Below, piece by piece: positions 6,940 to 63,100 of a stretch of DNA of 64,000 bases (positions are counted from its first letter, which is position 1; each line of letters starts with the position of its first letter). The notes beneath the pieces were generated by a model, which saw only the letters and a list, made by a program, of their open reading frames with translations, had not been told where the DNA came from and did not search any database. The position numbers and the translations under genes were made by a program. The DNA lies in contig CM035357.1 in NCBI GenBank assembly GCA_020137815.1, positions 4,836,001 through 4,900,000 of the forward strand, given 5' to 3'. The DNA is from Hormiphora californensis (taxonomy: Eukaryota > Animalia > Ctenophora).

Positions 6940-7930
6940 CTTAGTTCATAAACATGCGAATAACGACTTAACGGTGAGAGATACGACTTTTTGTCAGGGT
7001 GACGACCCCCCATAAAACGACTATTCTGCGCCGGAATATGTCCATGAAAACGTTCTAGGACCAGCCGAAGTGGAAATATTAAGAATATGCATTAAATCAT
7101 GAATCGGTGCATAAATATGCAAATAACGGCTTAACGGTGCCAGATAGAGATTTTTGTCCCGAGTAAGACCCCCCATAAATCGACTATTTTGCGTCGAAAT
7201 ATCTCCATGAAAACGTTCTAGGATCAGCCGAACTGGAAATATTCAGAATATGCATTAAATCATGAATCGGTGCATAAATATGCAAATAACGGCTTAACGG
7301 TGCGAGATACGACTTTTTGTCCGGAGGACGACCCCCCCATAAATCGACTATTTTGCGTCGAAATATGTCCATGAAAACGTTCTAGGACCAGCCGAAGTGA
7401 AAATATTGAAAATATGCATAAAATCGTGAATAGGTGCATAAATATGCAAATAACGGCTTAACGGTGCGAGATAGAGATTTTTGTCCCGAGTAAGACCCCC
7501 CATAAATCGATGATTCCGCGTCGAATAAGACCGGTTTTAAGATTCTATGACCTTCGAGTCGTGTCATAATCGCGACCATGGTTTAAATGAATATTTACTG
7601 AACTAATTAATGATAATTAATGAACTATGGCGATTTTGAAGTTCTACACAGCTATTACCGCAGCGCAATGTGTGTAAGGAACCAATGTTCCAAACGGCAA
7701 GTCTCTACTATTTGTGGTTTAGGAGAACACTCAAGATAAAAAGCGTCCTCCCCCTCCCCTCCCCCCTCCCCCTCCCTCCTACTTTTTTTTGCATTTGGGA
7801 CCCCTCTGGCAAATTTTTACCTTACTCTCCGATCGTTCTGAAAATTTGTATGCCTCTTCTCCTATATGAGGGCACTCAGAGTACAAAATTTCAGCTCTCT
7901 ACTTCATCTGGAACATGCTTTTTTAAAAGC
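6940..7930. mobile_element. Non-autonomous element body with tandem subrepeats; the 7640-7930 part recurs inverted at ~58100-58320
   Basis: Recurring blocks gcaaataacggcttaacggtg...gaccccccataaatcgac. The motif gttccaaacggcaagtc...ctatttgtggtttaggagaacact is shared in reverse with ~58250-58300. Confidence 0.6.
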
Positions 7931-10037: not shown

Positions 10038-13000
10038 ATGCGCCTTCTATGTCTCATCCTTCTCTTTCCTGTGCTTGTCCGGGCGGGTGAAGAATGGCCC
10101 CATTTCAAGGTGGCCGCAATCGTTGAGAACATGGGAGATGGAAGTGATGATTCCTGGCCGAGACTTGCGAATGAGTCACTTATTGTTGCTAAGAATCTGA
10201 TCAAGGAGAGATTGGGGATCAGTCTGGATTTGAGATTTGTCTTCTCAAAGTGTAACACAAAGATTGGTCTTATTGAAACTACCAAGTGTCTCATTGATCA
10301 AAATTTGGTTGAAAACGATTCGGAGACCGAGTAAGTGGCGAATGAGTGTTTGTTTCAAAACCATAGAAGTTATTTGTTGGTCTAACTCAAAGTTTCAACG
10401 CCAAGAGTGCTAATTCAACCATAACTTTTACTAACTGCATTGTTTTCAGTGAGCGTGTAGACGTGTTTGTTGGCCCAGGATGCTCAGAAGTTTGCAAAAA
10501 TACCGCGTACATTGCCTCCAAAGAGGGATTCAACGTCCCAATGGTAAACAATATCTAAATGATTTGTTAAATATGTTTAGTTCTGATATCATATCTGATG
10601 TCTTATCTCCCCAAATTCCCTTCCCATATCTTCTATCCCCCCAAACTCCCTCTCCATATATCCTATCCCCCCAAACTCCCTCTCCATATATCTTATCCCC
10701 CCAAACTCCCTCCCCATATCTCGTATCTCCCCAAACTCCCTCCCCATATCTCGTATCTCCCAAACTTCCTCCCCAGATCTCGTATCCCCAAACTCCCTCT
10801 CCAGATCTCCTATCTCCCCAAACTCCCTCCCCATATCCCCCCAAACTCCCTCCCCAGATCTCCTATCCCCCCCAAACTCCCTCCCCATATCTCGTATCTC
10901 CCAAACTCCCTCTCCAGATCTCCTATCCCCCCAAACTCCCTCCCCAGATCTCTTACCTACCCCCAAACTCCCTCTCCAGACCTCTTACCTACCCCCAAAA
11001 TCCCTCTCCAGACCTGTTATCTCCCCCAAACTCCCTCCCCAGATCTCCTATCCACCCAAACTCCCTCTCCAGATCTCCTATCCCCCAAACTCCCTCCCCA
11101 GATATCCTATCCCCCAAACTCCCTCCCCAGATCTCCTATCCCCCCAAACTCCCTCTCCAGATCTCCTATCCCCCCAAACTCCCTCTCCATATCTCCTATC
11201 CCCCCAAACTCCCTCCCCATATCTCGTATCTCCCCAAACTCCATCTCCAGATCTCCTACGCGTGCACACTGGACAGTTTGAGTGACCGGAACGATTACAG
11301 TACCTTTGCCCGGACGGTTCCCAGTGTGGGGTCCAATGCTGTTCCCATGATTACCATTATCAAAGAAATGGAATGGGAACGGGTGGGAATAATTTACAGA
11401 AACATTGGACTTTACGAGGTAAGAGCAATGAGCAAATTGTCGTCTTGTCGAGTTCAGTCGTTCGATATCATTTTAAATTTCACCCTGGAGAAGAATGGAT
11501 AGAGGGAATTGATATTAATAGTATAGATACAGATAAACTTTTTGCTCTACATATTTAAGTTTCAACATCCCCTATTTCAGGAGGCTGCTGCCAGTTTGAA
11601 AAAGGAGCTGGAGAAAAGTCTTGGATCTGATCCAACAATGGAGTTTGGGTTTCAGGTCAGTTGTACTGTGTATTGTTTCTAGGTATTCGTCTTGACGCGG
11701 CTCCGATAAGAAACATGGCTTGAAGCCAAGCAAGGTGTGCTGCGTATCAGATACACTATTCCTAGGATAAACAGCTACACGATCAGACTGCAGAGAGAGA
11801 GAGAGCCTACTTGAAATCCTTGGTTACGAAATAACCCCTCTCCGGGCGACCTTCGCGCGCGCTGGCAAGGGGTAACTTCGTAACCAATTGAAATCCTTCC
11901 AGGTGAAATGTTACAAAGTTTGGTATTTTGATGATGACGATAAAGACGAGAAGATTGCCACTGCTAAGGACATTAGAGATGAGTGTAAAGACGAAGTTAG
12001 AGGTTGGTTATATAATATATAGCTACCCCTCTTCCGAGAGCCATTATGGATATGTAGAGACTGATATTATACTTGACCAAGTAGTGATATCAACTCGTAG
12101 TGTCATTCTTTTCAAGCAACTAACATATCTTCATTTCAGTTTTCATAATCCTGGCGTATGATTCGAATGTTATTGATTTCCTGAAGCTAGCTTACGAAGA
12201 TACCTCGTTTCCTTATTCTGAATCTGCTTTTATTGCGCTGGAAGTTACTCAGACCACCGTGACCGAAGGTATTATAGCTTTTAAACGGTTGTATCAATTA
12301 ATTTAGATAACATTTCGAGGAGAATTATGAGCCATTAATTATATATCTTGATCCCAATCTTTCGATCTCTGCACATATATCTGATATTACTATTACTGTA
12401 CTCATATTCATAATAATCCGTCGAAATCGTGTATAAAATTTGACAAAACATAAAATTTATAGGGGCAATGTAATTCCTTCACTAAATGGTAGTAATAGGT
12501 CCACCCTACGTAGGCCTACCACCAAACGAAAGTTTACCAACCAACTCCATGGGGGGAGGTCCGATAATTGGCCTTAATTGACACCTGTATTTTCAGTATG
12601 GGTCCAAAACCATAAGTACCCTTAGAATAGGAGTAGAGAAAAAACCAAGGGCATTAAAGTGATCAGCGTCCTCGCATTAGTGGGGGTAGGTGCTGGAATC
12701 AAGTCTCTATCTCATCAGGTTAATTAGATATTTGGATAATTAGATATGTGCATAACCGTATTTTGGCTATATGGCTATAGCCACTTAGGAATGGTTTAGA
12801 GACTTTTCACTGGTGCCATTTTGTAGGCAATGGTCAAGTTATGGGGGGTCGACGTCGGACTTTTAAGCTCTATTTTTAACCGTTTAGCCGTTATTCGGCT
12901 TTAAAAGTGCTCAAAATGAGCAAAAAATGGTAAAAAGCCCGATTTTTAGCACCTTTAAAGCCGAATAACGGCTAAACGGTTGGAGATAGAGCTTAAAAGT

Positions 13001-16000
13001 CCGACGTCGACCCCCCATAACAAGGCCATTGCCTACAAAATGGCACCAGTGAAAAGTCTCTAAACCATTCCTAAGTGGCTGTAGCCATATAGCCAAAAAA
13101 CGGTTATGCACATATCTAATTATCCAATTATCTAATTAACCTGATGAGATAGAGACTTGATTCCAGCACCTACCCCCACTAATGCGAGGACGCTGATCAC
13201 TTTAATGCCCTTGGTTTTTTCTCTACTCCTATTCTAAGGGTACTTATGTTTTTGGACCTATACTGAAAATACAGGTGTCAATTAAGGCCAATTATCGGAC
13301 CTCCCCCATGGAGTTGGTTGGTAAACTTTGGTTTGGTGGTAGGGTGGACCTATTAGTACCATTTAGTGAAGGAATTACATTGCCCCTATAAATTTTATGT
13401 TCAAAGCACGATTTCGTCGGATTATAATGAAAGTTTACACGCTGTACTCAGTACTGAGTGCCCACGTGCACTTGCCATCATTAATCACAGAACAATTATA
13501 GAACGAGAGCTGAATATTCTTTCTATACAATTCCATACAAAGTATACGTGTACAATTAAATTATACAATCTCAACACTCATATGTTACTACAATATGATT
13601 GTGTAGGGAGAACTCTACAGAAAAATGGGATTTCTCCGGAGTATATTTTACAAAACAAAACACTCGTGTTATACATAATATCCTACAGAGACGAAAGAGT
13701 ACACACGTGGATTGCTATCTCTCAGTCTCAGGGAACCGGACAACGAAATGTTTCGAAATCTCACCCGGGAAGTCGGTGAAATGGTCAACGAAACCGTTAC
13801 TGTAAGTGAGGTTGATGATCGGAACAAAATTTGATAGTTAATTCATTGAATAACCGTTTAGCAATCCAAACTGAAACAATTTCTGATAACTGACATCCCC
13901 CTCTCCTCTCAGCTCGATGTGTACAGTGCGACGTTATTTGACTCCCTCCTCACCTATGCCTACGCAGCTAAGAGCATCATCGACTCCTACACACCAACAA
14001 ATTCATCCGAAACAACGGAAGAAAAGGAGACAAACATTTACACCAAAATAAAAAATGGAACCCTGGTTGCTGAGGTCATTGCGGGGTTGGAAACGTTCTC
14101 AGGGGCCTCGGGGGACGTATCATTTGACACTAATGCGGATAGGAAGGGGTCCATAGAGGTGTTTCAAGCACAGACGGCATCTGGTTCTTTAAAATTAGTG
14201 ACAATATTTGAAACAGTGGATGGGGAGCTGGAGAATGTGGAAAATGTTCCATATCAGTGGAACGATGGGAGTGATGTAAGAAAATTCCTTGAATACCTTG
14301 TTTTGTTCAAACCCTGGTCGTGGGAAAACAGAATGTGCCCCCCAATAACACGTGTTCCCCCTAAATTTAGAACGTGCCCCCATCCGCCAATAACACGTGT
14401 TCCCCCTAAATTTAGAAGGTGCCCCCATCCCCCAATAACACGCGTTCACCCTAAATTTAGAACGTGCCCCATCCCCCAATAACACGCGTTCACCCTAAAT
14501 TTAGAATGTGTCCCATCCCCCAATAACACGTGTTCCCTTTAGAACGTGCCCCCAGCCTGTGGGGAGGGGAGGGAGCTTTGTACAGAACCCGATCTAACAA
14601 AAACAGTCCTCCTTGTGGTTTTACCCATTGGTAAGCTAATTGATACACGCGTGCTTATATGGCTACACCTAATATTGGACCTTAATTATTTTTGAATTTT
14701 GAAGTTCCACCATTAAATAGTTGTTTAGTTAACAGCTTTCTTTCTAAATTAAACTGAATATTCATACAGGTGTCCTATTATTGGTTATTCTGGCTGTTCT
14801 ATTAATTTTCATGTTGTGGAGGAGCAAGGTTCAGAGGCTACAAGATCGGTGTTTATGGAAAATTAAATCCAGCGATGTGGAATTCAAGGATGCTGGCGCC
14901 CAGTCTGGAAGGTAAGGCTAGCATCCCACGAGTTATAGACATGACAGCTCTAAAAGTGTAGTTTAAATGATCTGAAAAATTCCGAAAGCATACCGACTCC
15001 GATTTACCCGAGCATACCGGTAAAATTCAAAACTAACAAGGCCAATATTTTCATATGCAGGTTCAGATCGGTGGATAGAAGTATGTCCCGGGTATCGACT
15101 ACCTCCGATGCCAGCCTTAATCATGGCATTGTGGCGTACTTCAAAAATGATCCGGTGTACTTGAAACATCTGAAAACTGATGTAAAACAATTCAACGTTA
15201 CGGATGATATTATTCTTGAATTTAAACAGGTCGGTGCAGTGGTACCAAGCAGCGCATACTGTTGATTGTGTATTTGTACTATCATGCACATGAGCCATAT
15301 TGGAGTATAGAATCCCAAAATTGAAGATTGTTAACCTGATTCTATTGCAGGTCCGTGAGTTGACCCAACAAAACCTAAATCCCTATATCGGGTCCTGCGT
15401 GGAGGTCCCAGATAATTTCTTCCTTGCATCCAGCTATTACCGTAAAGGATCCCTTCAGGATGTCCTATCAGATCAGAATTTAAAACTTGACGACATGTTT
15501 AAAATGTCATTCATCTTTGATATTTGCAAGGTAATTATAGTTATTGATCAATTATATTTGTTCATGATTTGGAAATTAAACGTAAGGCTTTTGAAATTAA
15601 CAAATCGATAATCAATTCAGCTAATTGTCTAACTATTATTCCTCAAATATCAGGGAATGCAAGCGATTCATAATTCTCCGATAAAGTTTCATGGGCGGTT
15701 AAAATCGTGTAACTGCGTCATTGACTCTCACTGGGTCCTTAAAATCACCGACTATGGACTTCGTGGATTCCTTTCAGAATATGCCCTGGTAAGACTTCTA
15801 AACATCAAATACAGTACAGACCCCGATTTACCGGGCCCCAATTTACCGGAACCCCCATTTACCGGGAGGATAAAATTCCCCCGATATAGGAAATTAATGG
15901 CAATTGACCCCGATATACCGGGCACCCCGATTTACCGGTCAAAACCCTTTCCCCTGAGCATCCCGGTAAATCGGGGTCCGACTGTAATACCACACCTGGT

Positions 16001-19000
16001 TGTGAGTGTTTATGATTTGTCTGATTACTATCGTAACTCCAATCTCAGATCGATCCGATGAAGTCAGAAGATGGAATTTATTTTGACATGCTATGGTCAG
16101 CGCCAGAACTAATTGGCTACGCTGAGGCCGGGGACAGAAAACTAAGTGGAAGTCAGAAGGGAGACATTTTCTCTTTTGCAGTCATTGTAACTGAAATAAT
16201 GAGTAAAAATGTGCCATACGGTGACCAGTTTAACTGTTCAGCAAAAGGTACGCCAATTGCTTCCATCTTTCGGGTTGTTGAGGAGCACTCAATAACTTAC
16301 GGGTGGGCCATATGGGCAATTTCTCATTTGCCGCATACGGCGTCTAGACGGCGTCGCACCGCCGTCTAGACGGTGTCTAGACGGTATACCGGCTAGACGG
16401 GTTTCGATAAAAATCAGCTAAAAACGGTACCAAAATTGCTTGAAACGGGTTATAGACGGTATCAGACGGTCTCTAGACGGGTTATAGACGGTATCAGACG
16501 GTGTTGCGACGGTATCAGACGGTCTCTAGACGGTACCGTCCCGGTGTCTAGACAGTGTCTGGACGGTCTCTAGACGGTATCCGTCCAAAGTTGAGACGGC
16601 ACGTCTGAAAATTGTACCAGACGTTGAGACGGACTTTTAGAACTCCGTCTGTATTTCAGATACCGTCTAGACAACTTCTCCAGCAATTTCGATACGAATA
16701 CCGTCTAAACAACGTCTAGACAACGTCTCAAATGCAGCTGTAAATAGAAATGTAAAAAGGAGATAATACAATATTAAAGTAAAAGTTGCCTAGACGGTAT
16801 TTGAAACTGAATCGCGAGATTCTGTTTAGACGTTGTTTAGACGGTATGTTGACCGGTTTCAGTTGAGACGTTGTTTAGACGGTACTTTCATCGATTTTCC
16901 TTTAGACTGCGTTTAAACGTACTTTTAAAACTCCGTCTGAAATACAGACGGAGTTCTAAAAGTCCGTCTTAACGTCTGGTACAATTTTCAGACGTGCCGT
17001 CTCAACTTTGGACGGATACTGTCTAGAGACCGTCCAGACACTGTCTAGACACCGGGACGGTACCGTCTAGAGACCGTCTGATACCGTCGCAACACCGTCT
17101 GATACCGTCTATAACCCGTCTAGAGACCGTCTGATACCGTCTATAACCCGTTTCAAGCAATTTTGGTACCGTTTTTAGCTGATTTTATCGAAACCCGTCT
17201 AGCCGGTATACCGTCTAGACGGCGGTGCGACGCCGTCTAGACGCCGTATGCGGCAAATGAGAAATTGCCCTCATATAGACACCTGGCGCGAGCTCAATCT
17301 CGGTCGCGCCAGGTGTCACCAACCCTGAACCGGGCCAAATCGCTATAAGATACATTTCGCCGACACACTCACTAGGGACTATCGCATCAATTTGATAGTC
17401 CCCTCCCTAGTGTGATCCCCAGACTCAGGCAAGAAGAAGAAGTAAAACGATAAGTATTTTTATTTTTTTAATGCATTCCAAATTCTACTCAATTCTCAAA
17501 ATTTTGAAAACAAAATATTTCTATAATCACACTCGGCGTTTTAGCCTGTAAGGTCCAATAAAGAAGGTCTAATAGGACCAATGTCCGATTACAGACCAAT
17601 TATAGACCAATTACCAACAAATTGTGGGCCCCCAACCACAAAGTACGCAGTCGGAATTAACACCTTTACAGTCGTCGTTAGTGTCACATCCAACATACCC
17701 GGCCTGATTGCCCCTTTGCCAGCACCATTGCCCAGTTTTCCCACACCACTTCCAGCAACTCCCATTACAACACTCACTTGCTGAAATAAAGGGGGGGGGG
17801 GTAAATGATAACCTGATATGCACGTTTTTGACCATAACTCAGCCATTTCTTGACCAATTTGCAAAATCTTGGGCTCATTGGAAAGAGGACATTGAGCTCT
17901 TTCAAGTGAGCCCAAGCAGAAAACTGCTGATTTGAAATTACATTTTGTGCCACTTTTTGGGCGATTTTTAACCCCTACTCCAATCCAGCAACTTTTTCGG
18001 CTCAAAATGGGTTGTTTACGATGACAACTGATAGAATGGACTACTTTATATGTGAAAAAGGCCAATTCTCAAAAATTTTACTTGCATTTTGACCATATTT
18101 TGATACGTGAGACGGCGTAGTGGCCAACCACTAGAAAACGGGCTATAGCCTTTGGAAGAAAAATAGACTGGTCCCTAAAACTGGTGTTGTGAGATCAAAA
18201 TTTCGTGCCGAACCGGTTCCTGTAAAAATTTTAGGGCTCCGATGAACGAAACCCCGAAAAAATAGCTTGCGAAAATCATTATCAATCTAATATTTGTATG
18301 TATACATATTTATTATATATATATATATTTAATATACACATTATATCGTCACCTTAAAGTGTTACAAAGTGTTACATAGTGTTACAAAGTGTTACATAGT
18401 GCAGTGTTACAAATTGTTACAAAGTGTTACAAATTAAAGGAAGTAATTTTGATATCTCCTTCTGGTGATCAACACACACACACGCCCTCTGTACAACAGT
18501 TTAATGGGGAATCTCACACATACACGGGCAGAACTCGGTTAAGGAGAGATTAATTAGTATTCTGAATAAAGAGTTCAGAGCAAGAATTAAATAGGGAAGA
18601 AAATCGAAAAATACTGGGTTTGACCGGGAATAGGGTTTGGTAGCTTAGTGGTTTATAGCTCCGAGCATGTCTCTCTGGAGGTCCCTGGTTCAATTCCCGG
18701 TCAAACCCAGTATTTTTCGATTTTCTTCCCTATTTAATTCTTGCTCTGAACTCTTTATTCAGAGTGTTACAAATTGTTACAAAGTGTTTCAAAGTGTTAC
18801 AAAAAGTGACCAAAAAATTTTTCTAGCGTAAAATACTGAAATAAATTTGTATTTGGCTGAACCTGACACTGTTTCATGGTGTTTTATACAACATATCCGC
18901 TTAAAATCGGGTGTACGGACCATATAAAATATGTAACACTATGTAACATTTTGTAACACTTTGTAACATGTGCAGAAAACTTTTTGTGCGTGTTACATGT

Positions 19001-22000
19001 TACAAAGTGAGAAAGTTTTGTTTTCTCCTTCCGGCTGGACAAATGAGTAGACGTGGTTTTTATTGTAGAAGAACGCAATAAAAACCACGTCTACTCATTT
19101 GTCCAGCCGGAAGGAGAAAACTAAACTTTCTCACTGATATGCGGCTAATAAACAATCAACCGATCCTTATTCTCTTATATGTTACAAAGTGTTACAAAGT
19201 GTTACGTGTCACCCCCCCCCTATGCAAAAAACTGCATCAAAATTGAGGTTCTGGATCGTTCTGGAGATATTGTCAAAAACGGGGTTTTACATCAAAATAC
19301 ATGTTAGTCAAAATCAGTTTTTGGCGTTTTTCTCAAAACTATGATATCCTTTCAACTTGAAGGTAACGATAGGGTAAGCTGGGGTGAAATGGCCCACGGG
19401 GTAATGTGGCCCATGTATGGGGCAAAGTGGCCCTAGTAATAACATGTGGTCACGTGACTTTTTCTCCAGCGGAGACCTGCTCGTTCTGTTCCGAATTTTC
19501 GCTTTAAAACTGCTGTCATTTCTGTTTGGGTTGGCCGATTTTAATTTTGCAAAAACTGCCAGTTAGGCTTTATAATTCTCTAAAACGTGGTATAAAAATT
19601 TTGAAGAAATTGGCAATTTTTTTGTCTTAATTGTCAATTTTGTGAAATCGGGGCAAATATGGCCCACTCTCCGGGGCAAAGTGGTCCACCTCTAGGACCA
19701 ATGAAATGGCGCCTGCAATACCACGTGACATTGGAATGCACTGGGGCAAATTGGTCCAGAACAAAAATGTAGTCCAGACGGTCAAATTAGGGGCAAAGTA
19801 GCCCATGTTCCGGTGCAGAACATGGGCCACTTTGCCCCTAATTTGATCGTTTCGTCCAACAACACCAGGCACGTGATAAAATCGAGCAATGCTATTGGCT
19901 TGGGCCACTTTGCCCCGGTGCAAAAAAAGCCCCGGTTCCAAAAAAAAGCCTCACCAAATTATTTGAATTGATTAATTAACCCATTAAATAAAACTTGTAG
20001 ATTTTAAAATTTAGCTCGGCTGAAAGGAAAAGGTTTCATTGGATAGCCTATATATTTTTTCTTCCTGCTGTATAAATTGGCAATTTATTAAATTGCGTAT
20101 TTTAGAACCTAAAATGTTAAAAGTGGGCCACTTTTACCCCAGCTTACCCTATACATACCCTATAAAATATTAATTGATCTTACCTTCGCTGGGCAGGGCG
20201 AAGAGCAGAAGAGCAAAGGTGCACAAAATCAGTGTCACTTTCATAGCGGTGTAGCTGTAGTTGATCAAAGAATAATATAATTGAGATGCGTATAATATAA
20301 TGTTGATTAGGTATTTCTAACGGCCCCTATTTAAAGGAGGGACCTGTCCTGTCCTATAACCGATCATTACTCTCCAATATGGCAACATGGAGCACTGTCT
20401 CCTTAGAGAACCAATGGTGGAGGGTGCTGCACTTAGTGAAAAATATTAAGCCAAGGTCCTGTCCGATAAACCGATCTTTACTCTCCAATATGGCAACATG
20501 GAGTACTGTCTCCTTAGAGAACCAATGGTGCTGTACTAGTGAAAAATATTAAGCTGTACTAGTGAAAAATATTAAGCAGCTGTCCTTGAATATTATTCAA
20601 GGACAGGCTAAATGTTCAATGAATAAATATGTTTAAATACTCTGAGCTGTGTGAGAGGACACCGTCACGATGTCTTGGTCTAGAAGTAGACGGTATCTAG
20701 ACGTTGTCTAGACACCGTCTAGTAGACGAGGTCGTCGCGAAGTTGAGAGGCACGTCAGAAAATTTTATTAAAAGTTGAGACGGACTTTAACAAGGCAACT
20801 TTTAGCCTGCTCCCTTGTGTGAGGGGATCGCCCTTCGGGCGTGCGAACATGAGGGGCGTGACGACGTGACGTGCCCAATGCAACTTTCCGTTTGCCGCAA
20901 ACAACGTCTAGATCGACTTGTTGAGTAAGGGGGAACTCAACAAAGATCGACAGGGTGTAGCAACGGTGTCCAGACGGTATTATATACTTTTCAGACGGGG
21001 TTGTACAAGCTAAGTCCGTCTCAACTCTTAATCTTAGTAAAATTTTCAAAATTGCCGTCTCAACTTCGCGACGAAACTGTTTAAACAACGTCTAGTCACC
21101 GTCTAGACGGCGGTGTGACGCCGTCTAGACGCCGTATGCGGCAAATGAGAAATTGCCGGCCATATGCTTATCAAGCTGGTGCAGGTACCAGCTGATATTC
21201 TATAAGTTAACAAAATTTCCCAAGGTTTATCGTAATCCTCATTTTCAGAGATTGTAGAGAAAGTGAAGGCGGGTTACAAGCCTCCCTTCAGACCAGACAT
21301 CCCCTTGGAATGTTCGGATGGATTATCAGAGCTGATCACCATGTGTTGGGATGAACAGCCCGCCCTGAGACCTGACTTCCCTAAAATACTGGGATTCCTA
21401 CAGGTCCTTCACCCTCAAAAGTAGGTGCAGTTGTGATCCTAGTGTAATAATGATACACAACATGTTTGTGCCAATTTAAAAAGATGATGATCAAGCTCCT
21501 AGACGACAGACGTGTCCCCTCACACTTCATTAAAAACCTGCCCCTGAGCTAATTCCATGGTTTTCCCCTGAGCAGACAGAGGTCAATAACGGACCGAATG
21601 ATCAAAATGATGGAGCAGTACACGGATAACTTGGAGGAATTGGTGGCAGAGAGGAGTGAGCAGTTAGCAATTGAAAAAGATAAAGCTGATAAACTGTTAT
21701 GCAGGATGCTCCCCAAGTGAGTAATTGCTCGTTAATTGACGTTTAGTTTTATTAATCTAAGCAACTTGTTTTCATTGTTGAATTTGGCTAAATTTTCCTT
21801 TTTTCAGACCAATCGCGGAAAAGTTAAAACAAGGGGAGCCGGTTCAGCCACAAGCATATGACGAAGTTACCATCTATTTCTCAGATATTGTCGGGTTTAC
21901 AGACCTCAGCTCTCAATCAACTCCTTTCCAAGTTTGTGGTGAAAATTAACTATGTTTTCCTAGATCCTTGAGCTCAAATGACCAACTGACTAGCTCGATC

Positions 22001-25000
22001 TTCTTTCTATATCTTCTTCCTCCATGCACTAAAACATCCAGGTGGTGGACCTGCTGAATGACCTGTACAGTTTGTTTGATGGTATAGTGGAGAGGCACGA
22101 TGTCTACAAAGTTGAAACTATCGGTGATGCATACATGGTTGTATCAGGTATGTGTAGAAGCAACTAAATAGCAAAGATAGCTGTGTTTGGTAATATATTT
22201 TAGTAAAGTATTTTAGTAAAGTATTTTAGTAATGGTAACATTTGTTGACGAACTGCTCTCCAAGGAAATCCTTATCAAGATTGATTTCATTTTTTAATAC
22301 CAACTTTGTTTCCCAGGTTTGCCAGTAATCAACGGTAACCGCCACGTGGCCGAGATCGCCAATATGAGTCTGGACTTCCTGAACTCTGTTAAACGGTTCA
22401 AAGTGAGACACAAACCAGACATTCAACTGAGGCTAAGGATAGGCATGCATACCGGTTAGTCGAACAGTTGCTCTCCCAATTCCCCTACCCTGCTCTCGCA
22501 ATTCCCCTCCTACTCTGCTCTCCCAATTCCCCTTCCTAGCCTATCCTGCTCTTGAGAGCTCTCCGACCAAGTTGCTTTATAATCTGCTCTCCCATGTTTC
22601 TAAAACACTTGCCCTCCCAGAACAAGTGTCGTCCTAAGACCTAACCTCCCTGAAACTTCCCCTGGCCTTCCTAACCCCACCTGCTCTCCCTGTTCCCTTC
22701 CTAACCTCATCTGCTCTCCCAGGTCCCTTCCTAACCTCACCTGCTCTCCCTGTTCCCTTCCTAACCTCACCTGCTCTCCCAGGTCCCTTCCTAACCTCAA
22801 GCTCACCTGCTCTCCCAGGTCCCTTCCTAAACTCACCTGCTCTCCCTGTTCCCTTCCTAACCTCACCTGCTCTCCCAGGTCCCTTCCTAACCTCACCTGC
22901 TCTCCCAGGTCCCTTCCTAACCTCACCTGCTCTCCCAGGTCCCTTTCTAACCTCACCTGCTCTCCCAGGTCCCGTCTGTGCGGGTGTAGTCGGGGTGAAA
23001 ATGCCCCGATATTGTTTGTTTGGGGACACAGTCAACACCGCCAGTCGAATGGAGAGCAATGGAGAGCCGCTGAAGATCCACATGAGCGATAGTTGCAAAG
23101 CAGCCCTGGACAAAGTTGGGGGATACGAACTGGAATGTCGCGGAGAAATAGCTATAAAGGTATGCAGTTGAGCTAGAATTACACATGTCATGAAACTTTT
23201 GAAATTGGGAATCCACATGTTCATGTTTGTCAGATTTAGCTTGCGTAAACCTTGTAACCTTGCAACCCACACATTGTAAACAACACATTGTAAGAGAACT
23301 TCATAAGACATCTACCACCTCAATCTTACCTCAATTTTGTACCCTCATCTGTACCCTCATCTGTACCCTCATCTGTACCCTCATCTGTACCCTCATCTGT
23401 ACCCTCATCTGTACCTTCATCTGTACCCTCATCTGTACCCTCATCTGTACCCTCATCTGTACCCTCATCTGTACCCTCATCTTTACCCTCATCTGTACCC
23501 TCATCTGTACCCTCATCTTTACCCTCATCTGTACCCTCATCTGTACCCTCATCTGTACCCTCATCTGTACCCTCATCTGTACCCTCATCTGTACCCTCAT
23601 CTGTACCCTCATCTGTACCCTCATCTGTACCCTCATCTGTACCCTCATCTGTACCCTCATCTGTACCCTCATCTGTACCCTCATCTGTACCCTCATCTGT
23701 ACCCTCATCTGTACCCTCATCTGTACCCTCATCTGTACCTTCACATGTAACAACTCACATGTAACAACTCACATGTAACAACTCACGTGTAACATCTCAA
23801 AGGGAAAAGGCAACATGACAACGTGGTGGTTGCCTGAACGCCCCAGAGGAGGAAAGTAGCCCGGCACATTCCCATATTTAGCAAACAGACCTCTGACTAT
23901 CCTGGCCAATGGGCATTTGGCAGCATTTGCTAATGGGGCCAGACCCCACTCTGGTAGATCTAGAAGGAGCCATTTTACCGTTTCAATGGGGTCTGCTGTC
24001 ACCATGGAAGACAGGAAGACTAGTTCTAAACTTCTTAAGATTTTGTAGTGTGAGTCTCGAGCAGTGGCACAGGATCAGTTTTCGCATGATTATGATATAG
24101 TAATCAGCAGGTTTTCAATCACAGTTTAAGGGTTTTTATCATTTTCTGCATCCAGGGGTCACCACACACCAAAGTTAAAATTAAAATTAAAATTTGACGT
24201 TTTTGGTCATAACTCTCCCATTTCTTGGCAAAATTGCTTCATTTTGGGCTTGTTGGAAAGAGGACATCGAGCCCGTTCTGAACAGCTCATGAAACTTGAA
24301 ATCCGCGCAAAGTGCGCGGCGTTACAGTGCAAAATGTGTGCGTTAAAATTTTAAAATTTTAACACACGCATTTTGCGCCTTAACGCCGCGCACTTTGCGC
24401 CGATTTTAAGTTTCTTGAGCTCTTTAGAACGGGCTCGATGCCCTCTTTCCAAAAAACACAAAATGAAGCAATTTTGCCAAGAAATGGGAGAGTTATGACC
24501 AAAAACGTCAAATTTTAATTTTAATTTTAACTTTGGTGTGTGGTGACCCAAACTTGTTTGATATTTTATCAATTTATAGCATGATTTGATTACTTTTTTA
24601 TGCATCCTACCAGGCACTATTCAAATCAACTTATCTCGAACACCTCCCTATCACTGGCATGATATTGATCTTATCTTGGGTGTTTTTTTAAGGGCAACCA
24701 TGGTTGATGACAATCCATTATTATCTAAAATCATACTGCCTGATTTCAGCTCTAACCCTGAATTTCTCACAGTATCCCTAACAGCTCCCACTCTTCCAAC
24801 AGGGCAAAGGAATCATGGAGACTTGGTGGTTAATGGGGAAAGAAGCAGAGTTGACAGATTCCAATGAGCTGCTGACGAGTATACCGGAACCTACCCCTAC
24901 TGCAGCAGCAACGATCCTAAAACCCAAATCATCCATAAAAAGATCAGCTGAGCGACGGAGTTTCAAGCGAGCGGGAAAACCAAAACAACCAAATAATACA

Positions 25001-25129
25001 GACACAGTTATCAATGTTGACAACAATAATGCAGACCAGAACCATGTCATCAAAAACCGTGCAGCGGTGGAAATAAGACCGAACGGATCTCACCATAATG
25101 GCGCAATGCCGGCAGTCCAAAACTCGTGA
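10038..25129 (+). CDS. Receptor (transmembrane) guanylyl cyclase, NPR/speract-receptor architecture: signal peptide, ANF-receptor ligand-binding domain, TM, pseudokinase, coiled coil, cyclase
   Basis: Phase-compatible GT-AG exons: 10038-10330, 10450-10543, 11251-11418, 11581-11655, 11903-12002, 12140-12268, 13689-13801, 13913-14275, 14543-14630, 14770-14911, 15061-15229, 15351-15530, 15654-15788, 16049-16247, 21249-21420, 21576-21716, 21808-21931, 22042-22147, 22317-22454, 22969-23159, then 23803-23859 or 24803-25129. Motifs: [75 protein letters not shown], GKGxMxTWWL. Confidence 0.95.
10598..11260 (+). repeat. ~30-bp intronic minisatellite containing the splice acceptor (ccccaaactccctctccag|atctcctat)
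   Basis: About 20 units; the last unit is the real acceptor of exon 11251 (ISYACT...). Confidence 0.9.
11820..11887. mobile_element. 68-bp mini-MITE with 9-bp TSD
   Basis: TIRs ttggttacgaaataacccct / aggggtaacttcgtaaccaa; TSD ttgaaatcc at 11811-19 and 11888-96. Confidence 0.85.
12411..13427. mobile_element. Palindromic (foldback) MITE
   Basis: Arms of ~450 bp (12452-~12910 versus ~12945-13397) are near-perfect reverse complements. Confidence 0.9.
14330..14552 (+). repeat. ~45-bp intronic minisatellite containing the splice acceptor (tttag|aacgtgcccc)
   Basis: About 5 units; the last is the acceptor of exon 14543 (NVPPACGE...). Confidence 0.85.
15812..15984. mobile_element. TA-flanked MITE (CAGTCGGACCCCGATTTA family)
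   Basis: TIRs cagtacagaccccgattta / taaatcggggtccgactg, TA on both sides; relatives at 29326 and 47292. Confidence 0.85.
16315..17269. mobile_element. Complete palindromic MITE forming the left arm of the composite
   Basis: Long inverted arms rich in tctagacgg subrepeats; the inner end at 17269 is followed by ctcatatag, not the TSD. Confidence 0.9.
17611..20244 (-). CDS. Secreted cysteine/tryptophan-rich peptide, 76 aa (cysteine pattern resembling Tha p 2-like proteins)
   Basis: Exon 1 20244-20184 ([20 protein letters not shown]+G, donor GTAAG); exon 2 17780-17611 (acceptor tttatttCAG). The phase-1 join gives [76 protein letters not shown]. Minus-strand AATAAA at 17459-64. Confidence 0.88.
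18346..19369. mobile_element. TA-flanked non-autonomous element with gtgttacaaa 10-bp repeats and internal hairpins
   Basis: Short TIRs tcgtcaccttaaagt / acttgaaggtaacga; TA at 18344-45 and 19370-71. Confidence 0.6.
18633..18709 (+). other. tRNA-derived (SINE-head-like) sequence with Pol III A/B boxes
   Basis: Acceptor stem GGGTTTG/CAAACCC, A box TAGCTTAGTGG, B box GGTTCAATTCC; the anticodon arm is irregular, so not called a functional tRNA. Confidence 0.6.
19372..20149. mobile_element. TA-flanked MITE (GGGTAAGCTGGGG family)
   Basis: TIRs gggtaagctggggtgaaatggccca / tgggccacttttaccccagcttaccc; internal ggggcaaagtggccc subrepeats. Confidence 0.85.
20328..20577 (-). promoter_or_regulatory. 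Putative promoter of the peptide gene: TATA-like box plus duplicated ~100-bp CCAAT-containing block
   Basis: TTTAAATA at 20335-20328, ~85 nt upstream of the ATG; direct repeats 20346-20451 and 20456-20554, each with two CCAAT and a GTTGCCAT half X-box-like motif. Confidence 0.45.
20686..21157. mobile_element. Diverged, left-truncated copy of the same MITE family forming the right arm of the composite
   Basis: Shares tctagac, gttgagacggactt and gtccgtctcaact motifs and the terminal ~45 bp with 16315-17269. Confidence 0.8.
22650..22975 (+). repeat. 30-bp intronic minisatellite of branch point plus acceptor (cctaacctcacctgctctcccag|gtccctt)
   Basis: About 10 units; six decoy CAG|GT precede the real acceptor at 22966-68. 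Confidence 0.9.
23339..23795. repeat. 12-bp minisatellite (gtaccctcatct)n followed by a short cacatgtaacaact repeat
   Basis: More than 30 near-identical units; source of the spurious CTLI/YPHL/VQMR ORFs. Confidence 0.95.
23803..23859 (+). CDS. Alternative short terminal exon of the guanylyl cyclase ([18 protein letters not shown])
   Basis: AAG acceptor at 23800-23802, phase 0 after the ...AIK donor at 23159; carries the conserved GKGxMxTxWL motif also found in 24803-25129. Confidence 0.7.
   Translation, partial: GKGNMTTWWLPERPRGGK
24156..24549. mobile_element. Palindromic MITE between the two terminal exons; related sequence at ~17825-17940
   Basis: Inverted arms gggtcaccacacaccaaag...ctttggtgtgtggtgaccc. 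Confidence 0.85.
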
Positions 25130-26841: not shown

Positions 26842-27123
26842 CGGCAGGTGAGTAGAACTTCGCTCCTAATAAAAGGCTGCAATAAAAGGCTGCAATAAAA
26901 GGCTGCAGAAAAAGGCTGCAGAAAAAGGCTGCAATAAAAGGCTGTAATAAAAGGCTGCAATAAAAGGCTGCAATGGATCACGTATCCAACTGGACTAAAG
27001 CGGGGGATAGACCGAATCGTCCTCCCCTAATAGTGTTTCGTTTCACGTATCGGTCTCTACCATAAGCGGTAGAGAGACCGAATCACCCGCCCCTAATTAT
27101 AGTGATTCGTGCCATGTATCCAC
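26842..27123. mobile_element. Interspersed repeat with 13-bp tandem array (aataaaaggctgc)n
   Basis: The same start (ggcaggtgagtagaa..cgctcctaataaaaggctgc) and body recur at 63175-63480. Confidence 0.75.
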
Positions 27124-28557
27124 TAGGGGGGGGAAAAAGAGTTTTGGGGGGGGGAAAAGAAAAATTTATTAGTATAGGTACAAAATTATGAATGAAGAGA
27201 TAAAAATTTTTCCTTTTGAAATCTTAACCCGGGGCTAAGGCAAGGGGGAAAAAAAGGGGGGGGGGAAAAAGGGGGGGGAAAAGGGAAGAAGGGAAAAAGG
27301 GGGGGGGAAAAAGGGGAAAGGGGAAAGAGAGAAAAGGGTTTTCTCCTTTTTTTAAAAGGGGTTTTTGGGGAAAAAAAGAAAGGGGAAATTTCGGGGGTTT
27401 TTAAAAGTTTTCTTTTTGGGGGGTGTTTAAAGAAAAATTTAAACATGGGGGTGAAAAAAACTTTCCCATTTTTAAAAAAATTTTGTACAAGCTGCAAAAA
27501 ATTTAAAAAAATTTTTACAAGTTTTTTAAAAGGGGAAAAAAATTTTAAAAGGGGGGTGGGGGGGGTTAAAATAAAAATTTTTTTTTTAATTTTCTTTTTT
27601 GGGGGTTTGCCCACACGTCTTCTTTACCCCGAAAAAATTTTCCCCCGCCCAAAAAATTTTCCCAAACCCAAAAAGGGAGTGCAAAATAAAGGGGGAGAGA
27701 GGCTTGAGTGATGAGATATGGTCAAGAAACGGTGCAATTGGGGGAAGGTACAAATCGCCGGCGCCCGAAATTTGGCGTTTTTCGCCATAGCTCCGTCATT
27801 TATTCACAAATATACCACTTTGAGGGTTATTGACTGGATGGTAAAGTGCGTTTCAAACGACTTGACCTGAGATTCCTGGAAATTCAGGATTTCCCCTTTG
27901 TAAATACACGCGCAATGCGCCAAATTCCAAGAATTACGGGTCAAGTCGCTTGAAACGGACTTTACAAATAAATAACATGATTTAAATACAATTTATAGAT
28001 TTATTATGCATGTTTTGTAATTTTCTTTGGAGGGCGCTATCTATTGATAACTGCGCTGCATTAAAAAATGCGCGTCAAACTTCAATTTTCTTCTGTGCGC
28101 GCGCTCAAACATGCATTCAAAATTTCAGAATCTTGCAAAGACTCAAATTTTCAAAATTTTACGAGAATTTTTGCTACAGACATGAGACGATTTTAGTTTA
28201 ATTTTTATACACGTATTATGAATTTTATACTTTATAGCCCGCAACAACTTATCCTTTCAATATCTGATTGCTAAAACTGAAAATTATGAACGGTTTTCCG
28301 TTTTGTATAAGCCTAAATCAGGCTGAAAGTCGCACAGACTGAGACCCCTGCACCCAATTGCATCAGTTTCCTTTTAGTATGCTGTCAGTTTCTAGCGATC
28401 CTAAACATGACATGAATCTGCCTTAATTTGGTTAATAGCAGCGTTGTTCTCATTCCTTCAGCATTCTCATTTTTACTTTTTCTATTGCGTCATTTTTCTC
28501 AAGTTTGAATTCACTCAACCGATTGAAGTTAGATTTTTAAGATAATCTCTTTTAGGA

Positions 28558-34555: not shown

Positions 34556-57978
<23,423 letters not shown>

Positions 57979-58828: not shown

Positions 58829-59830
58829 ATGTTATCTGTCCACCATCTCTTCACATGGATACTGGCCGTGTTCCTTATTCCGGTAAGACTAAGATATAAC
58901 ATCAATTGTTGATCAATTATTGTTTATCAGGATACAAAGAATAACGCTGTTTTGGGTAGACTCAATTCATCAAATAAAATCGTGAAAACCGCACAAACAT
59001 CAGCAAATTAGTTCATCAAATAGAACTCGTCACCAGCATTGTGTTCATGTTTTGTTTCATTTAAAATGTTATCATTTCTAGGTTGTTCTATCTGGAGGAA
59101 CAGTAAAGGTTGAATACAGGAGTTTCAAATACGATGGATGTTCAGCCCACACTTCTACATGTCAGATGAAGCTAACAGATTTTCAACTACTTATTGACAG
59201 TGTTGCCATTGTCAACAAGAGTGAGGTTAACCTACCAGCCGGAAACCCTGTGACACTGTCCGATGTTAACTTTTTAAATGACCCTTTTATAAAACAGTTT
59301 AGTGATGCGAATGGAAAAGTTGGAATATACTTCAAAGCATATGACATCACCAGTGGTACTCCAGGTCGATTGATAGACGATGTTACTGAGAACATTGGGT
59401 TCCATCAGTATGATATGTCTACAGTTGTAGACTGGAAAGAAAAGGTTCGCACGAGGTTTTATAACGGCTATGAGTCTAAATTTACATATTGGGTCGAGAT
59501 TACAAAATGTGGTGATAACTTTACAGGACCTGGATGTGGTGATTGCAAAGAGCACTACTATACGACTGAGTGTGATTTGTACTGCAAACCAGTTACAGAT
59601 CAGTACAACTGTATCGGAGAGGGTGTCCGGGAGTGTTTGGGTAACTTTGGGCCAGCAGGAGACTGCGAGAAATGTAACAAGGGGTGGAAAGGCTCAAAGT
59701 GTGATACCTGTGATATTGGCTGGGCAGGTGACAAATTGTGACACTTGTGATTCAAACTACTACCCTGCCGGAGACTGCTCTGACTATGCATCGGCAACTG
59801 TAATTTCCCTGTATAACAGGGAGCTGGTCT
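58829..59830 (+). pseudogene. Truncated, frameshifted copy (or allelic contig end) of the Delta-like gene
   Basis: Exons 58829-58882 and 59082 onward; +1 T near 59736, then several single-base deletions; similarity ends at ~59830. Confidence 0.65.
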
Positions 59831-61650: not shown

Positions 61651-63100
61651 ATGTTATCTGTCCACCATCTCTTCACATGGATACTGGCCGTGTTCCTTAT
61701 TCCGGTAAGACTAAGATATAACATCAATTGTTGATCAATTATTGTTTATCAGGATACAAAGAATAACGCTGTTTTGGGTAGACTCAATTCATCAAATAAA
61801 ATCGTGAAAACCGCACAAACATCAGCAAATTAGTTCATCAAATAGAACTCGTCACCAGCATTGTGTTCATGTTTTGTTTCATTTAAAATGTTATCATTTC
61901 TAGGTTGTTCTATCTGGAGGAACGGTAAAGGTTGAATACAGGAGTTTCAAATACGATGGATGTTCAGCCCACACTTCTACATGTCAGATGAAGCTAACAG
62001 ATTTTCAACTACTTATTGACAGTGTTGCCATTGTCAACAAGAGTGAGGTTGACCTACCAGCTGGAAACCCTGTGACACTGTCCGATGTTAACTTTTTAAA
62101 TGACCCTTTTATAAGACAGTTTAGTGATGCGAATGGAAAAGTTGAAATCTACTTTAAAGCATATGACATCACCAGTGGTACTCCAGGTCAATTGATAGAC
62201 GATGTTACTGAGAACATTAGGTTCCATCAGTATGATATGTCTACAACAATAGACTGGAAACAAAAGGTTCGCACGAGGTTTTATAACGGCTATGAGTCTA
62301 AATTTACATATTGGGTCGAGATTACAAAATGTGGTGATAACTTCACAGGACCTGGATGTGGCGATTGCAAAGAGGACCACTATACAACTGGATGTGATGT
62401 GTACTGCAAACCAGTTACAGATCAGTACAACTGTATCGGAGAGGGTGTCCGGGAGTGTTTGGGTAACTTTGGGCCAGCAGGAGACTGCGAGAAATGTAAC
62501 AAGGGGTGGAAAGGCTCAAAGTGTGATACCTGTGATATTGGCTGGGCAGGTGACAAATGTGACACTTGTGATTCAAACTACTACCCTGCCGGAGACTGCT
62601 CTGTACTATGCATCCGGCCAACTGTAATGTTCACCTGTAATAACCAAGGGGAGCTGGTCTGTGAACCTCACGTAACAGGGGACAACTGTGACAGTTGTGA
62701 AAAAGAGTGGGACGTTAGGACAAACTGTACAAGCTGTGCAGATAACTTCTATCCAGCGGGGGATTGCACTGTTTACTGCCTGTCTGATGATAACTTTGCG
62801 TGCACTGCTCAGGGAGTTCGGCTGTGTACAATAGGAAGTACTGCAGAGGAATGTGTTTCCCACAACAACTTGGTCGGGGAAGCTATCCTGGGTGGTATGA
62901 TATCTGGTCTCACTGTGGTTCTACTCGCCGGATTGGTTGGGATAATTGTGGTTACTATTAAAAGGAGGAGGGATACTGCCGCTGAACCGATTGTTCATCA
63001 AGGCCCAACAACAACCCAGCAGGAGGAACATGATTATGTGGAGATGAACGATTACAGAAACAAGCCCATAATACCTGAATCGGGGATTTATAATGATTGA
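61651..63100 (+). CDS. Delta-like type I membrane protein, 416 aa: signal peptide, MNNL/C2-like N-terminus, three DSL-like modules with EGF-like linkers, TM, Tyr-motif tail
   Basis: Exon 1 61651-61704 (MLSVHHLFTWILAVFLIP, donor GTAAG) plus exon 2 61904-63100 in frame. DSL-like: CKEDHYTTGCDVYCKP..YNCIGEGVREC, CDSNYYPAGDCSVLC..FTCNNQGELVC, CADNFYPAGDCTVYC..FACTAQGVRLC. TM ILGGMISGLTVVLLAGLVGIIVVTI followed by KRRR. Confidence 0.85.

Follow-up and report, generated by a model that had tools for sequence, protein, structure and literature searches.

A predicted cysteine-rich peptide gene within a repeat-bounded, transposon-like unit in a guanylyl cyclase intron of the ctenophore Hormiphora californensis

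Target duplications of 9-10 bp, together with long or subrepeated inverted ends, are the mark of Mutator/foldback elements (PMC8277862, PMC3169594), and animals offer few cases in which such elements have captured whole genes (PMC8277862, PMC6431247). The closest described systems are animal Pack-TIRs such as Ssk-FB4 of Drosophila melanogaster (Tan et al. 2021, PMC8277862), in which a near-whole gene and its upstream region lie between foldback-type ends, and Ising's composite TE of Drosophila, in which two foldback elements enclose host genes over hundreds of kilobases and can move with them as one unit (PMC6431247). Tm1, a Mutator/Foldback of root-knot nematodes, has ends composed of short tandem subrepeats of varying number and makes 9-bp duplications (PMC3169594). 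In Hormiphora californensis, a pleurobrachiid, 2357 nested genes are reported, i.e., genes lying inside one intron of another gene, and elements flank 176 of them on either side (Schultz et al. 2021, PMC8527503). The nested-gene section of that paper deals with flanking only, without target duplications or a route of arrival, whereas the locus described here offers a candidate route. The literature searched contained no ctenophore case of such gene capture, and a keyword search of the main text and supplements of PMC8277862 likewise returned none.

In the 64-kb stretch of H. californensis DNA analysed here (the window), positions 10038..25129 of the plus strand hold a gene for a receptor guanylyl cyclase with ANF_receptor, kinase-like and Guanylate_cyc domains. 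The gene is intact, its 12 exons from 14770 to 25129 joining without an internal stop. Two of its kinase-homology exons are separated by an intron of 5,001 bp (16248..21248, plus strand) and, within this intron and antisense to the host, lies the predicted peptide gene. It is wholly contained in a unit of 4,843 bp (16315..21157), the outer inverted ends of which (16315-16383 and 21089-21157) measure 69 nt and are 97% complementary. Immediately outside these ends, on the plus strand, stand two exact copies of the 9-bp direct repeat GGCCATATG (16306..16314 and 21158..21166), which is likely a target-site duplication; this 9-mer occurs twice in the window. Subtraction of the unit leaves a computed empty site of 149 bp, and the other 10 host introns measured have a median of approx. 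150 bp (range 91-1643 bp). That the peptide gene lies in an intron of the guanylyl cyclase gene, enclosed in a transposon unit with repeats at its boundaries, had not been noticed in the sequence-only reading of this DNA and is the best-supported new fact of the present analysis.

The left part of the unit is formed by element A (16315..17269), a palindromic foldback-type element of 955 bp with arrays of 11-bp subrepeats and core arms of 251 nt (99%). The right part is formed by element A' (20658..21157), a palindromic relative of approx. 500 bp, the arms of which are 86% alike and the left arm of which lacks approx. 32 terminal nt of the inverted repeat. The word AGACG occurs 48 and 29 times per kb in the two elements vs. 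approx. once per kb elsewhere. No transposase-like ORF was found inside the unit, where the longest ORF is 159 aa and the three ORFs of at least 100 aa have no Pfam match (three shorter ORFs were outside the scan), and the window contains no autonomous element of the family. Three of the features by which Pack-MULE/Pack-TIR elements are recognized are seen, namely outer terminal inverted repeats, a likely target-site duplication of 9-10 bp (with a weaker alternative boundary) and gene-like, non-transposon cargo with no transposase inside. The inverted arms, which are long and contain tandem subrepeats, are as in Mutator/Foldback elements. Duplications of 8-10 bp are also made by other superfamilies, such as Merlin or AcademH, which are alternative candidates for the source of the transposase. 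Because inverted ends, a 9-bp repeat and an empty intron of typical size are found together, Pack-MULE/foldback capture of a whole gene is likely, and the peptide gene was probably brought into the intron as whole-gene cargo by a Mutator/foldback-type transposon.

As in Ssk-FB4 and other animal Pack-TIRs, a near-whole gene with its upstream region is found between foldback-type ends, the target duplication falls in the 9-10 bp range and the unit has no transposase of its own (PMC8277862). Unlike in Ssk-FB4, the cargo seems to include a poly(A) signal, has a complete element on one side and a truncated relative on the other instead of being enclosed in one element, and sits in an intron of another gene; its size is also different (approx. 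3.4 kb vs. a Pack-TIR median of 224 bp, PMC8277862). The enclosure of a host gene by two foldback elements recalls Ising's composite TE, although here a single gene is held in 4.8 kb (PMC6431247). The subrepeated ends and the 9-bp duplication are like those described for Tm1, but the subrepeats are of 11 bp here vs. approx. 14 bp, and Tm1 has an autonomous member (PMC3169594).

Alternatively, the gene might long have resided in the intron as a nested gene, two related foldback elements having landed later on either side and the 9-bp match being due to chance or target preference. Nested genes are common in Hormiphora and often stand beside elements (PMC8527503); indeed, flanking elements alone mean little, because elements abound in pleurobrachiid introns and 176 of the 2357 nested genes of this species are flanked in the same way. 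Independent landing would also suit the interiors of A and A', which are only 72-83% alike, and the fact that element A alone, with a boundary one base wider on each side, gives a flank match of 5/6. However, the exact 9-bp repeat is restricted to the outer ends, the inner end of A having a different 9-bp flank; A' has no inner terminus; the empty intron is of typical size; and the element family would require two duplication lengths, a length judged here from three ends, which are all that the window offers. A 9/9 flank match is expected by chance with a probability of 3e-6 from base composition; for an arbitrary pair of 9-mers from the window, the value is 7e-5. Since CATAT is common to all three flanks, which allows for target preference, this chance could nevertheless rise to approx. 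1 in 250 (four remaining letters). In view of these points, later landing around an old resident is an improbable explanation. A search for a further copy of the inner flank, which might have revealed a hidden duplication, gave one inverted copy, at 7862, which is unrelated.

If the gene arrived as transposon cargo, as we prefer to assume, a Mutator-family transposase acting in trans would have created the 9-bp duplication, and the peptide gene would be derived from a parent locus. The outer ends of A and A' might have served as those of a single composite unit in which the gene travelled, or the gene might have been copied into an already inserted A' by gap repair from a site at which A adjoined the gene; neither route appears more probable than the other. 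The locus would thus be the molecular scar of a route of arrival for a nested gene, and such scars can be sought genome-wide, as target duplications just beyond the elements on either side of nested genes. Capture by such units could be one source of the nested genes that are common in these animals.

The peptide gene is supported at the sequence level as a two-exon gene for a secreted, Cys-rich peptide (20244-17611, minus strand). The coding part of exon 1 (20184..20244, 61 nt) comprises the ATG, one Lys, a 15-residue hydrophobic core and the start of a cleavage region, i.e., a predicted signal peptide, with a 9-residue hydropathy of up to 2.9. The coding part of exon 2 (17611..17780, 170 nt) comprises the last signal residue, the 55-residue mature peptide P0001 and the stop. 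The intervening GT-AG intron of 2,403 bp (17781..20183) contains several small inverted-repeat elements. It had been proposed from the sequence that exons of 61 and 170 nt join in phase 1 to give 76 aa, that the 55 aa following SEA contain 10 Cys and 6 Trp, and that the gene had escaped the ORF track. The recomputed junction indeed yields 76 codons plus a stop in phase 1, the residue counts agree, and the peptide frame has no stand-alone ORF of at least 100 aa; over exon 2, the ORF list has one of 159 aa, which is in a different frame and has no Pfam match. The donor, GTAAGA, scores 9.4 and the acceptor, a pyrimidine tract with TTTCAG at its end, 10.8 with matrices built from 11 host-gene introns, the in-sample host ranges being 7.4-11.7 and 7.3-16.1; equally high scores are reached by 24 of the 7418 GT and 45 of the 8208 AG sites in the window. 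With either of two other nearby AG sites as the acceptor, the product would be of 22 residues or poor in Cys. Upstream, a predicted core-promoter-like sequence (20298..20335, minus strand) consists of a TATA-like TTTAAATA at 20335 and an initiator-like TCA approx. 31 nt downstream, followed by a leader of approx. 60 nt with no upstream ATG. Tandem duplications (20346..20577; a 111-bp unit, x2.0, 87%, and a 23-bp unit, x2.1, 100%) lie upstream of the TATA-like box. Poly(A)-signal-like motifs (17459..17472, minus strand), ATTAAA at 17472 and AATAAA at 17464, are found approx. 140-150 nt past the stop and precede a T-rich tract.

The exon pair might, in principle, be a chance reading of TG-rich intronic DNA that was never a gene. 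Exon 2 is 37% G and is also open in another frame, and a weak 11-bp repeat reaches its stop. Furthermore, incorrect frames of GC-rich DNA can yield Cys/Trp/Gly motifs, as at 94 of the 151 pattern loci listed in the scan described below. Nonetheless, only one in 20,000 dinucleotide shuffles of exon 2 had a stop-free frame with at least 10 Cys in any of the six frames. A scan for a signal-like first exon paired with a Cys-rich last exon returned the peptide gene as the single pair in the window, and a pair in none of 60 Markov-simulated windows (17 of which had a Cys-rich exon alone), its filters having been chosen after the peptide gene was seen; the first-exon filter also picked up the signal exon of the host gene at 10038. 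Moreover, the signal-like exon, the even number of Cys, the TATA-initiator spacing and the poly(A)-like signal are all consistent with one gene, which makes a chance reading very improbable. The window does hold low-quality tracts.

Among the elements within the peptide intron are an inverted-repeat element of 778 bp with TA on both sides (19372..20149, presumably Tc1/mariner-type) and an element with 10-bp GTTACA-type arrays (18356..19205), which encloses two smaller palindromes, one at 18561-18763 with a tRNA-like core and the other at 19006-19135. Three of the four elements measured are considered young because their inverted ends are 98-100% identical or nearly identical. The survival of the frame despite these insertions had been taken as a sign of selection. 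The frame is intact, but this is weak evidence of function or selection because the elements are young and a neutral copy would be stop-free with a probability of 0.55 at 5% divergence, in an estimate that considers substitutions only. There is an appreciable, though clearly smaller than even, chance that what the unit brought in is the copy of a genuine gene and is now silent cargo, a young, undecayed pseudogene, the working gene being the parent elsewhere. Captured cargo consists mostly of fragments and is transcribed only in part (PMC8277862, PMC6431247), the peptide gene is antisense to its host, and the probability that a neutral copy is stop-free amounts to 0.55-0.89 at 5-1% divergence. 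On the other hand, the copy possesses promoter-like and poly(A)-like motifs as well as splice motifs, and the frame would be kept together with all Cys with a probability of 0.15 at 5% and 0.005 at 14% divergence, 14% being the arm divergence of A' and not a dated age of the capture. We are inclined, with some reservation, towards a working copy: transcription would start at its own promoter, and the spliced product would encode a peptide that is cleaved after Ala21 and folded with five disulfides.

The precursor has 11 Cys, one of them in the signal-like part; in the mature peptide, Cys is found at 3, 4, 8, 12, 19, 31, 37, 44, 47 and 54 and Trp at 9, 11, 18, 20, 49 and 55. With four Lys/Arg and five Asp/Glu, its calculated net charge is -1.6 (pI 4.8), which argues against a classic cationic antimicrobial peptide. 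HMMER-type and other sequence searches found no homologue, and the 64-kb window contains no paralogue. A word-index search with the 55-residue peptide (proteins of 30-97 aa and 98-2000 aa) returned no candidate, Pfam gave no match to the whole peptide, the best solved-structure sequences had E values of 0.49 and 1.2, and the best score in the atlas comparison, 0.80, was under its threshold. Several candidates were rejected. The three phmmer matches at E <=0.001 among 1.84 billion representatives are unrelated long bacterial Kelch/Ig-repeat proteins paired via Trp-rich repeats, and the only one of 53 metagenome candidates to pass matches over 16 residues in an incorrect frame of a bacterial gene. 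A long Cys-pattern scan gave four viral loci, three with stops or out of frame and one in a short unrelated frame. An N-terminal pattern scan gave 31 viral and at least 120 prokaryote loci; the motif appears in one frame at 94 of the 151 listed and extends into the C-terminal half at none, as expected of chance frames. The predicted structure is of low confidence (pLDDT 64.7). A structure search of the PDB and viral libraries gave no match at E 0.001, and a wide fold search gave a best Z of 4.2 and none of at least 5; because the model has a pLDDT of 65, these searches say nothing on fold novelty. Among the papers listed in literature searches, none dealt with such a ctenophore Cys-rich peptide. 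The peptide appears to be a small orphan of the kind that gene annotation tends to overlook, cheap to synthesise and assay, in a phylum, Ctenophora, with secreted effectors that are little known.

A likeness to Tha p 2 proteins had been suggested by the sequence-only reading. The by-eye resemblance is real, but membership is not supported by search tools. No function is known for Tha p 2, and all reports of it are from processionary moths (PMC11335235); disulfides C1-C8, C2-C6, C3-C7, C4-C10 and C5-C9 on a three-stranded sheet are predicted for its family. Like the family member U-TPTX4-Tp1 (PMC11335235), the peptide is predicted to be secreted, has 10 Cys and is rich in Gly and Trp. In a post hoc alignment by eye, 19 of 55 residues are identical (9 Cys and 10 others), 9 of the 10 Cys can be aligned, and the intervals between Cys agree in 4 of 8 cases. 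Four short motifs are common to both (G-x-C-W-x-x-C-G, W-C, Y-V-x-C-x5-C and C-x-x-C-G), with a joint chance of approx. 4e-7 (Cys fixed, post hoc, independence assumed), and both models show a small antiparallel sheet. A remote Tha p 2 member that irritates or poisons prey or predators, by which the fold would be extended from moths to ctenophores, is nevertheless unlikely: no search tool recovered the family, the alignment needs five gaps, the family is known from processionary moths alone (PMC11335235), and peptides rich in Cys, Gly and Trp converge easily. Since, in addition, the Cys intervals differ (0,3,3,6,11,5,6,2,6 in the peptide vs. 5,4,3,13,14,5,2,2,3 in U-TPTX4-Tp1) and the 37-residue N-terminal extension is absent (2 vs. 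37 residues ahead of the first Cys), membership is not established.

Another lead comes from the hevein motif, SX-aromatic-X-aromatic-CGX4Y (PMC5093130). A relaxed form, with Trp replacing the last Tyr, is present at residues 7-18, the strict form being absent, and it arises in 232 of 2,000,000 shuffles. As in hevein-like peptides, Ser and three aromatics stand at 0, +2, +4 and +11, with C-G and the following Cys in register; unlike in them, the last aromatic is Trp, Lys takes the place of a small residue, an extra Cys lies within the loop and the cystine-knot Cys spacing is absent (PMC5093130). Pfam showed no chitin-binding domain in the peptide at E 10, and the hevein fold test rests on the low-confidence model (best Z 4.2), which places Trp18 in a strand. 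The motif may serve as a post hoc lead to function. The likeliest single function, although a doubtful one, would be that of a binding peptide in extracellular defence or prey handling, in which the aromatic patch (Ser7, Trp9, Trp11 and Trp18) would bind chitin/GlcNAc glycans as hevein does, rather than lysing membranes as cationic peptides do. A far-reaching combination, in which foldback/Mutator composites actively drop whole working ctenophore genes into introns and the cargo is one expressed member of a hitherto undescribed family of ten-Cys defence peptides that shares a remote ancestor with Tha p 2 and has acquired a hevein-like chitin-binding patch, seems rather improbable; if true, this route would account for part of the thousands of nested genes of ctenophores.

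In other animals, disulfide peptides, e.g., natriuretic peptides, guanylin and eclosion hormone, act as ligands of receptor guanylyl cyclases. A secreted disulfide peptide nested in a gene of the peptide-receptor type could, by analogy, be a signalling ligand, e.g., for the host receptor. However, the peptide has no dibasic processing sites and no family match, which leaves a ligand role very unlikely, and its proximity to the host receptor carries no functional weight because the location is explained by insertion. A neighbouring DSL gene is indicative of a Pleurobrachia-like ctenophore, since its best relatives are found in Pleurobrachia bachei.

The exon positions proposed in the sequence-only reading for a secreted, cysteine-rich peptide are borne out: on the minus strand, a predicted exon 1 of 61 nt (20244-20184) joins a predicted exon 2 of 170 nt (17780-17611) through a GTAAGA donor and a TTTCAG acceptor in phase 1, giving 76 codons and a stop. 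Residues 1-21 of the predicted precursor comprise one lysine, a 15-residue hydrophobic core, and Pro-Ser-Glu-Ala ahead of the likely cut, and the remaining 55 residues (the predicted mature peptide, P0001; 6.07 kDa, pI 4.8, charge -1.6) include 10 Cys and 6 Trp. On the same strand, the TATA-like motif TTTAAATA begins at 20335 and is followed approx. 31 nt downstream by an initiator-like TCA; the leader is free of upstream ATGs, and the motifs ATTAAA and AATAAA come approx. 140-150 nt beyond the stop. Both splice sites score inside the range of the introns of the host gene (n=11), and equally high scores are reached by 24 of 7418 GT and 45 of 8208 AG sites. When exon 2 was shuffled 20,000 times, a stop-free frame with ten cysteines arose once. 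When the window was scanned for pairs of a signal-like first exon and a cysteine-rich last exon, with filters set post hoc, once the gene was known, this pair alone emerged; none of 60 simulated windows contained such a pair, and a cysteine-rich exon without a partner arose in 17 of them. Very probably, the exon pair stems from a genuine peptide gene.

The peptide gene lies antisense to its host, a receptor guanylyl cyclase with ANF_receptor, kinase-like and cyclase domain matches, and within a single intron. The 12 host exons lying between 14770 and 25129 give a joined frame free of internal stops. The intron concerned (16248-21248) measures 5,001 bp, whereas the other ten measured span 91-1643 bp (median near 150); without a putative mobile unit of 4,843 bp (16315-21157) and one 9-bp repeat, it would be 149 bp. 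Three exact copies of a 20-base terminus are present in the window, one forward at 16315 and two reverse at 17269 and 21157, and the outer two form a 69-nt inverted repeat (97%). Immediately outside each of these two ends stands GGCCATATG, a 9-mer with just two copies in the window, and the flank of the inner end at 17269 differs from it. The chance of such a 9-bp match is 3e-6 by composition, or 7e-5 for any two 9-mers; however, CATAT is common to all three flanks and might reflect a target preference, in which case the surprise would drop to approx. 1 in 250. The left part of the unit, element A, is a 955-bp palindrome that contains 11-bp subrepeats and whose core arms agree at 99%, and the right part, element A', is a related sequence of approx. 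500 bp with arms at 86% and an inner arm that lacks the terminus. Elements A and A' enclose a cargo of approx. 3.4 kb, in which the whole of the gene model, from promoter-like region through the two exons to poly(A)-like signal, is contained, and no transposase-like frame was found within the unit. With its boundary set one base wider, element A has a flank match of its own (5/6), which counts against reading the whole as one mobile unit.

Passages of PMC8277862 and PMC3169594 present 9-10 bp duplications and long, subrepeated inverted ends as the mark of Mutator/foldback elements, and it is likely, with good confidence, that the peptide gene was brought in with or through a foldback unit. Two routes can be envisaged. 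In the first, the gene would have been flanked at its parent site by element A and a truncated A', and the outer ends would have been mobilised together, much as in the Drosophila composite foldback elements described in part of PMC6431247. In the second, A' would have inserted first, and gap repair would then have replaced its left end using as template a site where element A adjoined the peptide gene; gap repair is the route proposed, in the relevant section of PMC8277862, for most single-copy animal Pack-TIRs. Either route would make the peptide gene an immigrant in the guanylyl cyclase intron. The nearest known case is Ssk-FB4, described in the same section of PMC8277862, where FB4 has taken up an almost complete gene. 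Hormiphora has 2357 nested genes, 176 of them with elements on both sides, and the nested-gene section of PMC8527503 that reports them gives no route of arrival. No ctenophore case of such capture was found in the literature searched, which included few subscription papers, and the ctenophore words looked for occur in 0 of the 12 supplementary files of the Pack-TIR survey (PMC8277862). The mobile mechanism is of a known kind; what sets this locus apart is that the probable cargo is an entire gene, placed between two related elements in a ctenophore intron and coding for an orphan peptide.

Two hairpin-forming palindromes at 17278-17413, between element A and the peptide 3' end and without a second copy in the window, may be what is left of a further element that came from the parent site. 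A tRNA-like sequence (18633-18709; Rfam tRNA, 34.4 bits; tRNA-Thr TGT by ARAGORN) sits inside a 203-bp palindrome (18561-18763) whose 71-nt arms match at 100%. No other tRNA is called in the window, and the palindrome might be a tRNA-derived element with arms overlapping the acceptor stem.

The intact frame had been taken as a sign of selection, an argument that proves weak. Only substitutions being counted and indels excluded, 36 of the 684 possible changes create a stop, so the probability that a neutral copy is still free of stops at 5% divergence is 0.55. The elements inserted in the peptide intron seem to be recent, with arms at 98-100% for two of them. For a neutral copy to retain all the cysteines along with the open frame would be less likely (0.15 at 5% and 0.005 at 14% divergence). 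A silent young copy is a less probable but serious alternative, and the gene in this intron is somewhat more likely than not to be expressed.

No relative of P0001 emerged from word search, phmmer, Pfam or solved structures, and the atlas, pattern scans and a scan of metagenomes were likewise negative. A single-sequence model (pLDDT 64.7) shows four strands and two helices, all of them short, and its fold search gave no clear match. The suggested likeness to Tha p 2 holds in part: aligned by eye with five gaps to U-TPTX4-Tp1 (sequence from a supplement row of PMC11335235), P0001 shares 9 Cys and 10 other identities over 55 residues, but the N-terminal extension is absent. Four motifs common to both have a joint rate near 4e-7 with cysteines fixed, as a post hoc product of rates. 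Residues 7-18 fit the hevein chitin-binding motif as excerpted from PMC5093130, except that Trp replaces the last Tyr; the relaxed motif appears in 232 of 2,000,000 shuffles, the strict motif fails, and Pfam finds no chitin-binding domain. The favoured though tentative reading is that P0001 would be an extracellular binding peptide, applying this aromatic patch to chitin/GlcNAc glycans in defence or prey handling. The next rival is a Tha p 2-like irritant; the function of Tha p 2 itself is given as not known in the part of PMC11335235 concerned. The predicted negative charge of P0001 speaks against a classic antimicrobial role.

In the guanylyl cyclase gene, the last coding exon exists in two related forms (23803-23859 and 24803-25129), one stopping after 18 codons and the other long-tailed, possibly alternative C-termini or a decayed duplicate. 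Its introns also hold palindromic elements at 12415-13423 (approx. 1 kb, flanked by an AT-rich repeat of 5 bp) and 24156-24549 (394 bp, related to 17822-17916 in the peptide intron). Long intronic tandem arrays lie at 10530-11285, 22600-22968, 23310-23750 and 53843-54990; their numerous open low-complexity frames were rejected as genes. Long homopolymer runs at 27120-27680 resemble unpolished long-read sequence and call for caution over assembly quality. On the minus strand, 39874-57220 holds what look like pieces of an adhesion-GPCR-type gene, with GPS-like, LDL-A-like and LamG-like exons recognised by eye. Two DSL-domain genes stand in tandem (59082-59830 and 61904-63100) and agree at 808 of 832 aligned bases; beyond 59735, the first has many length differences of 1-2 bases, and it is either a pseudogene or affected by uncorrected read errors. 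For the second, 5 of 2368 candidates are relatives at E 1e-20 or better, and the best two (60 and 69% identity) are proteins of Pleurobrachia bachei, so that a pleurobrachiid ctenophore is the likely source of the window; P. bachei has a family of DSL-domain genes.
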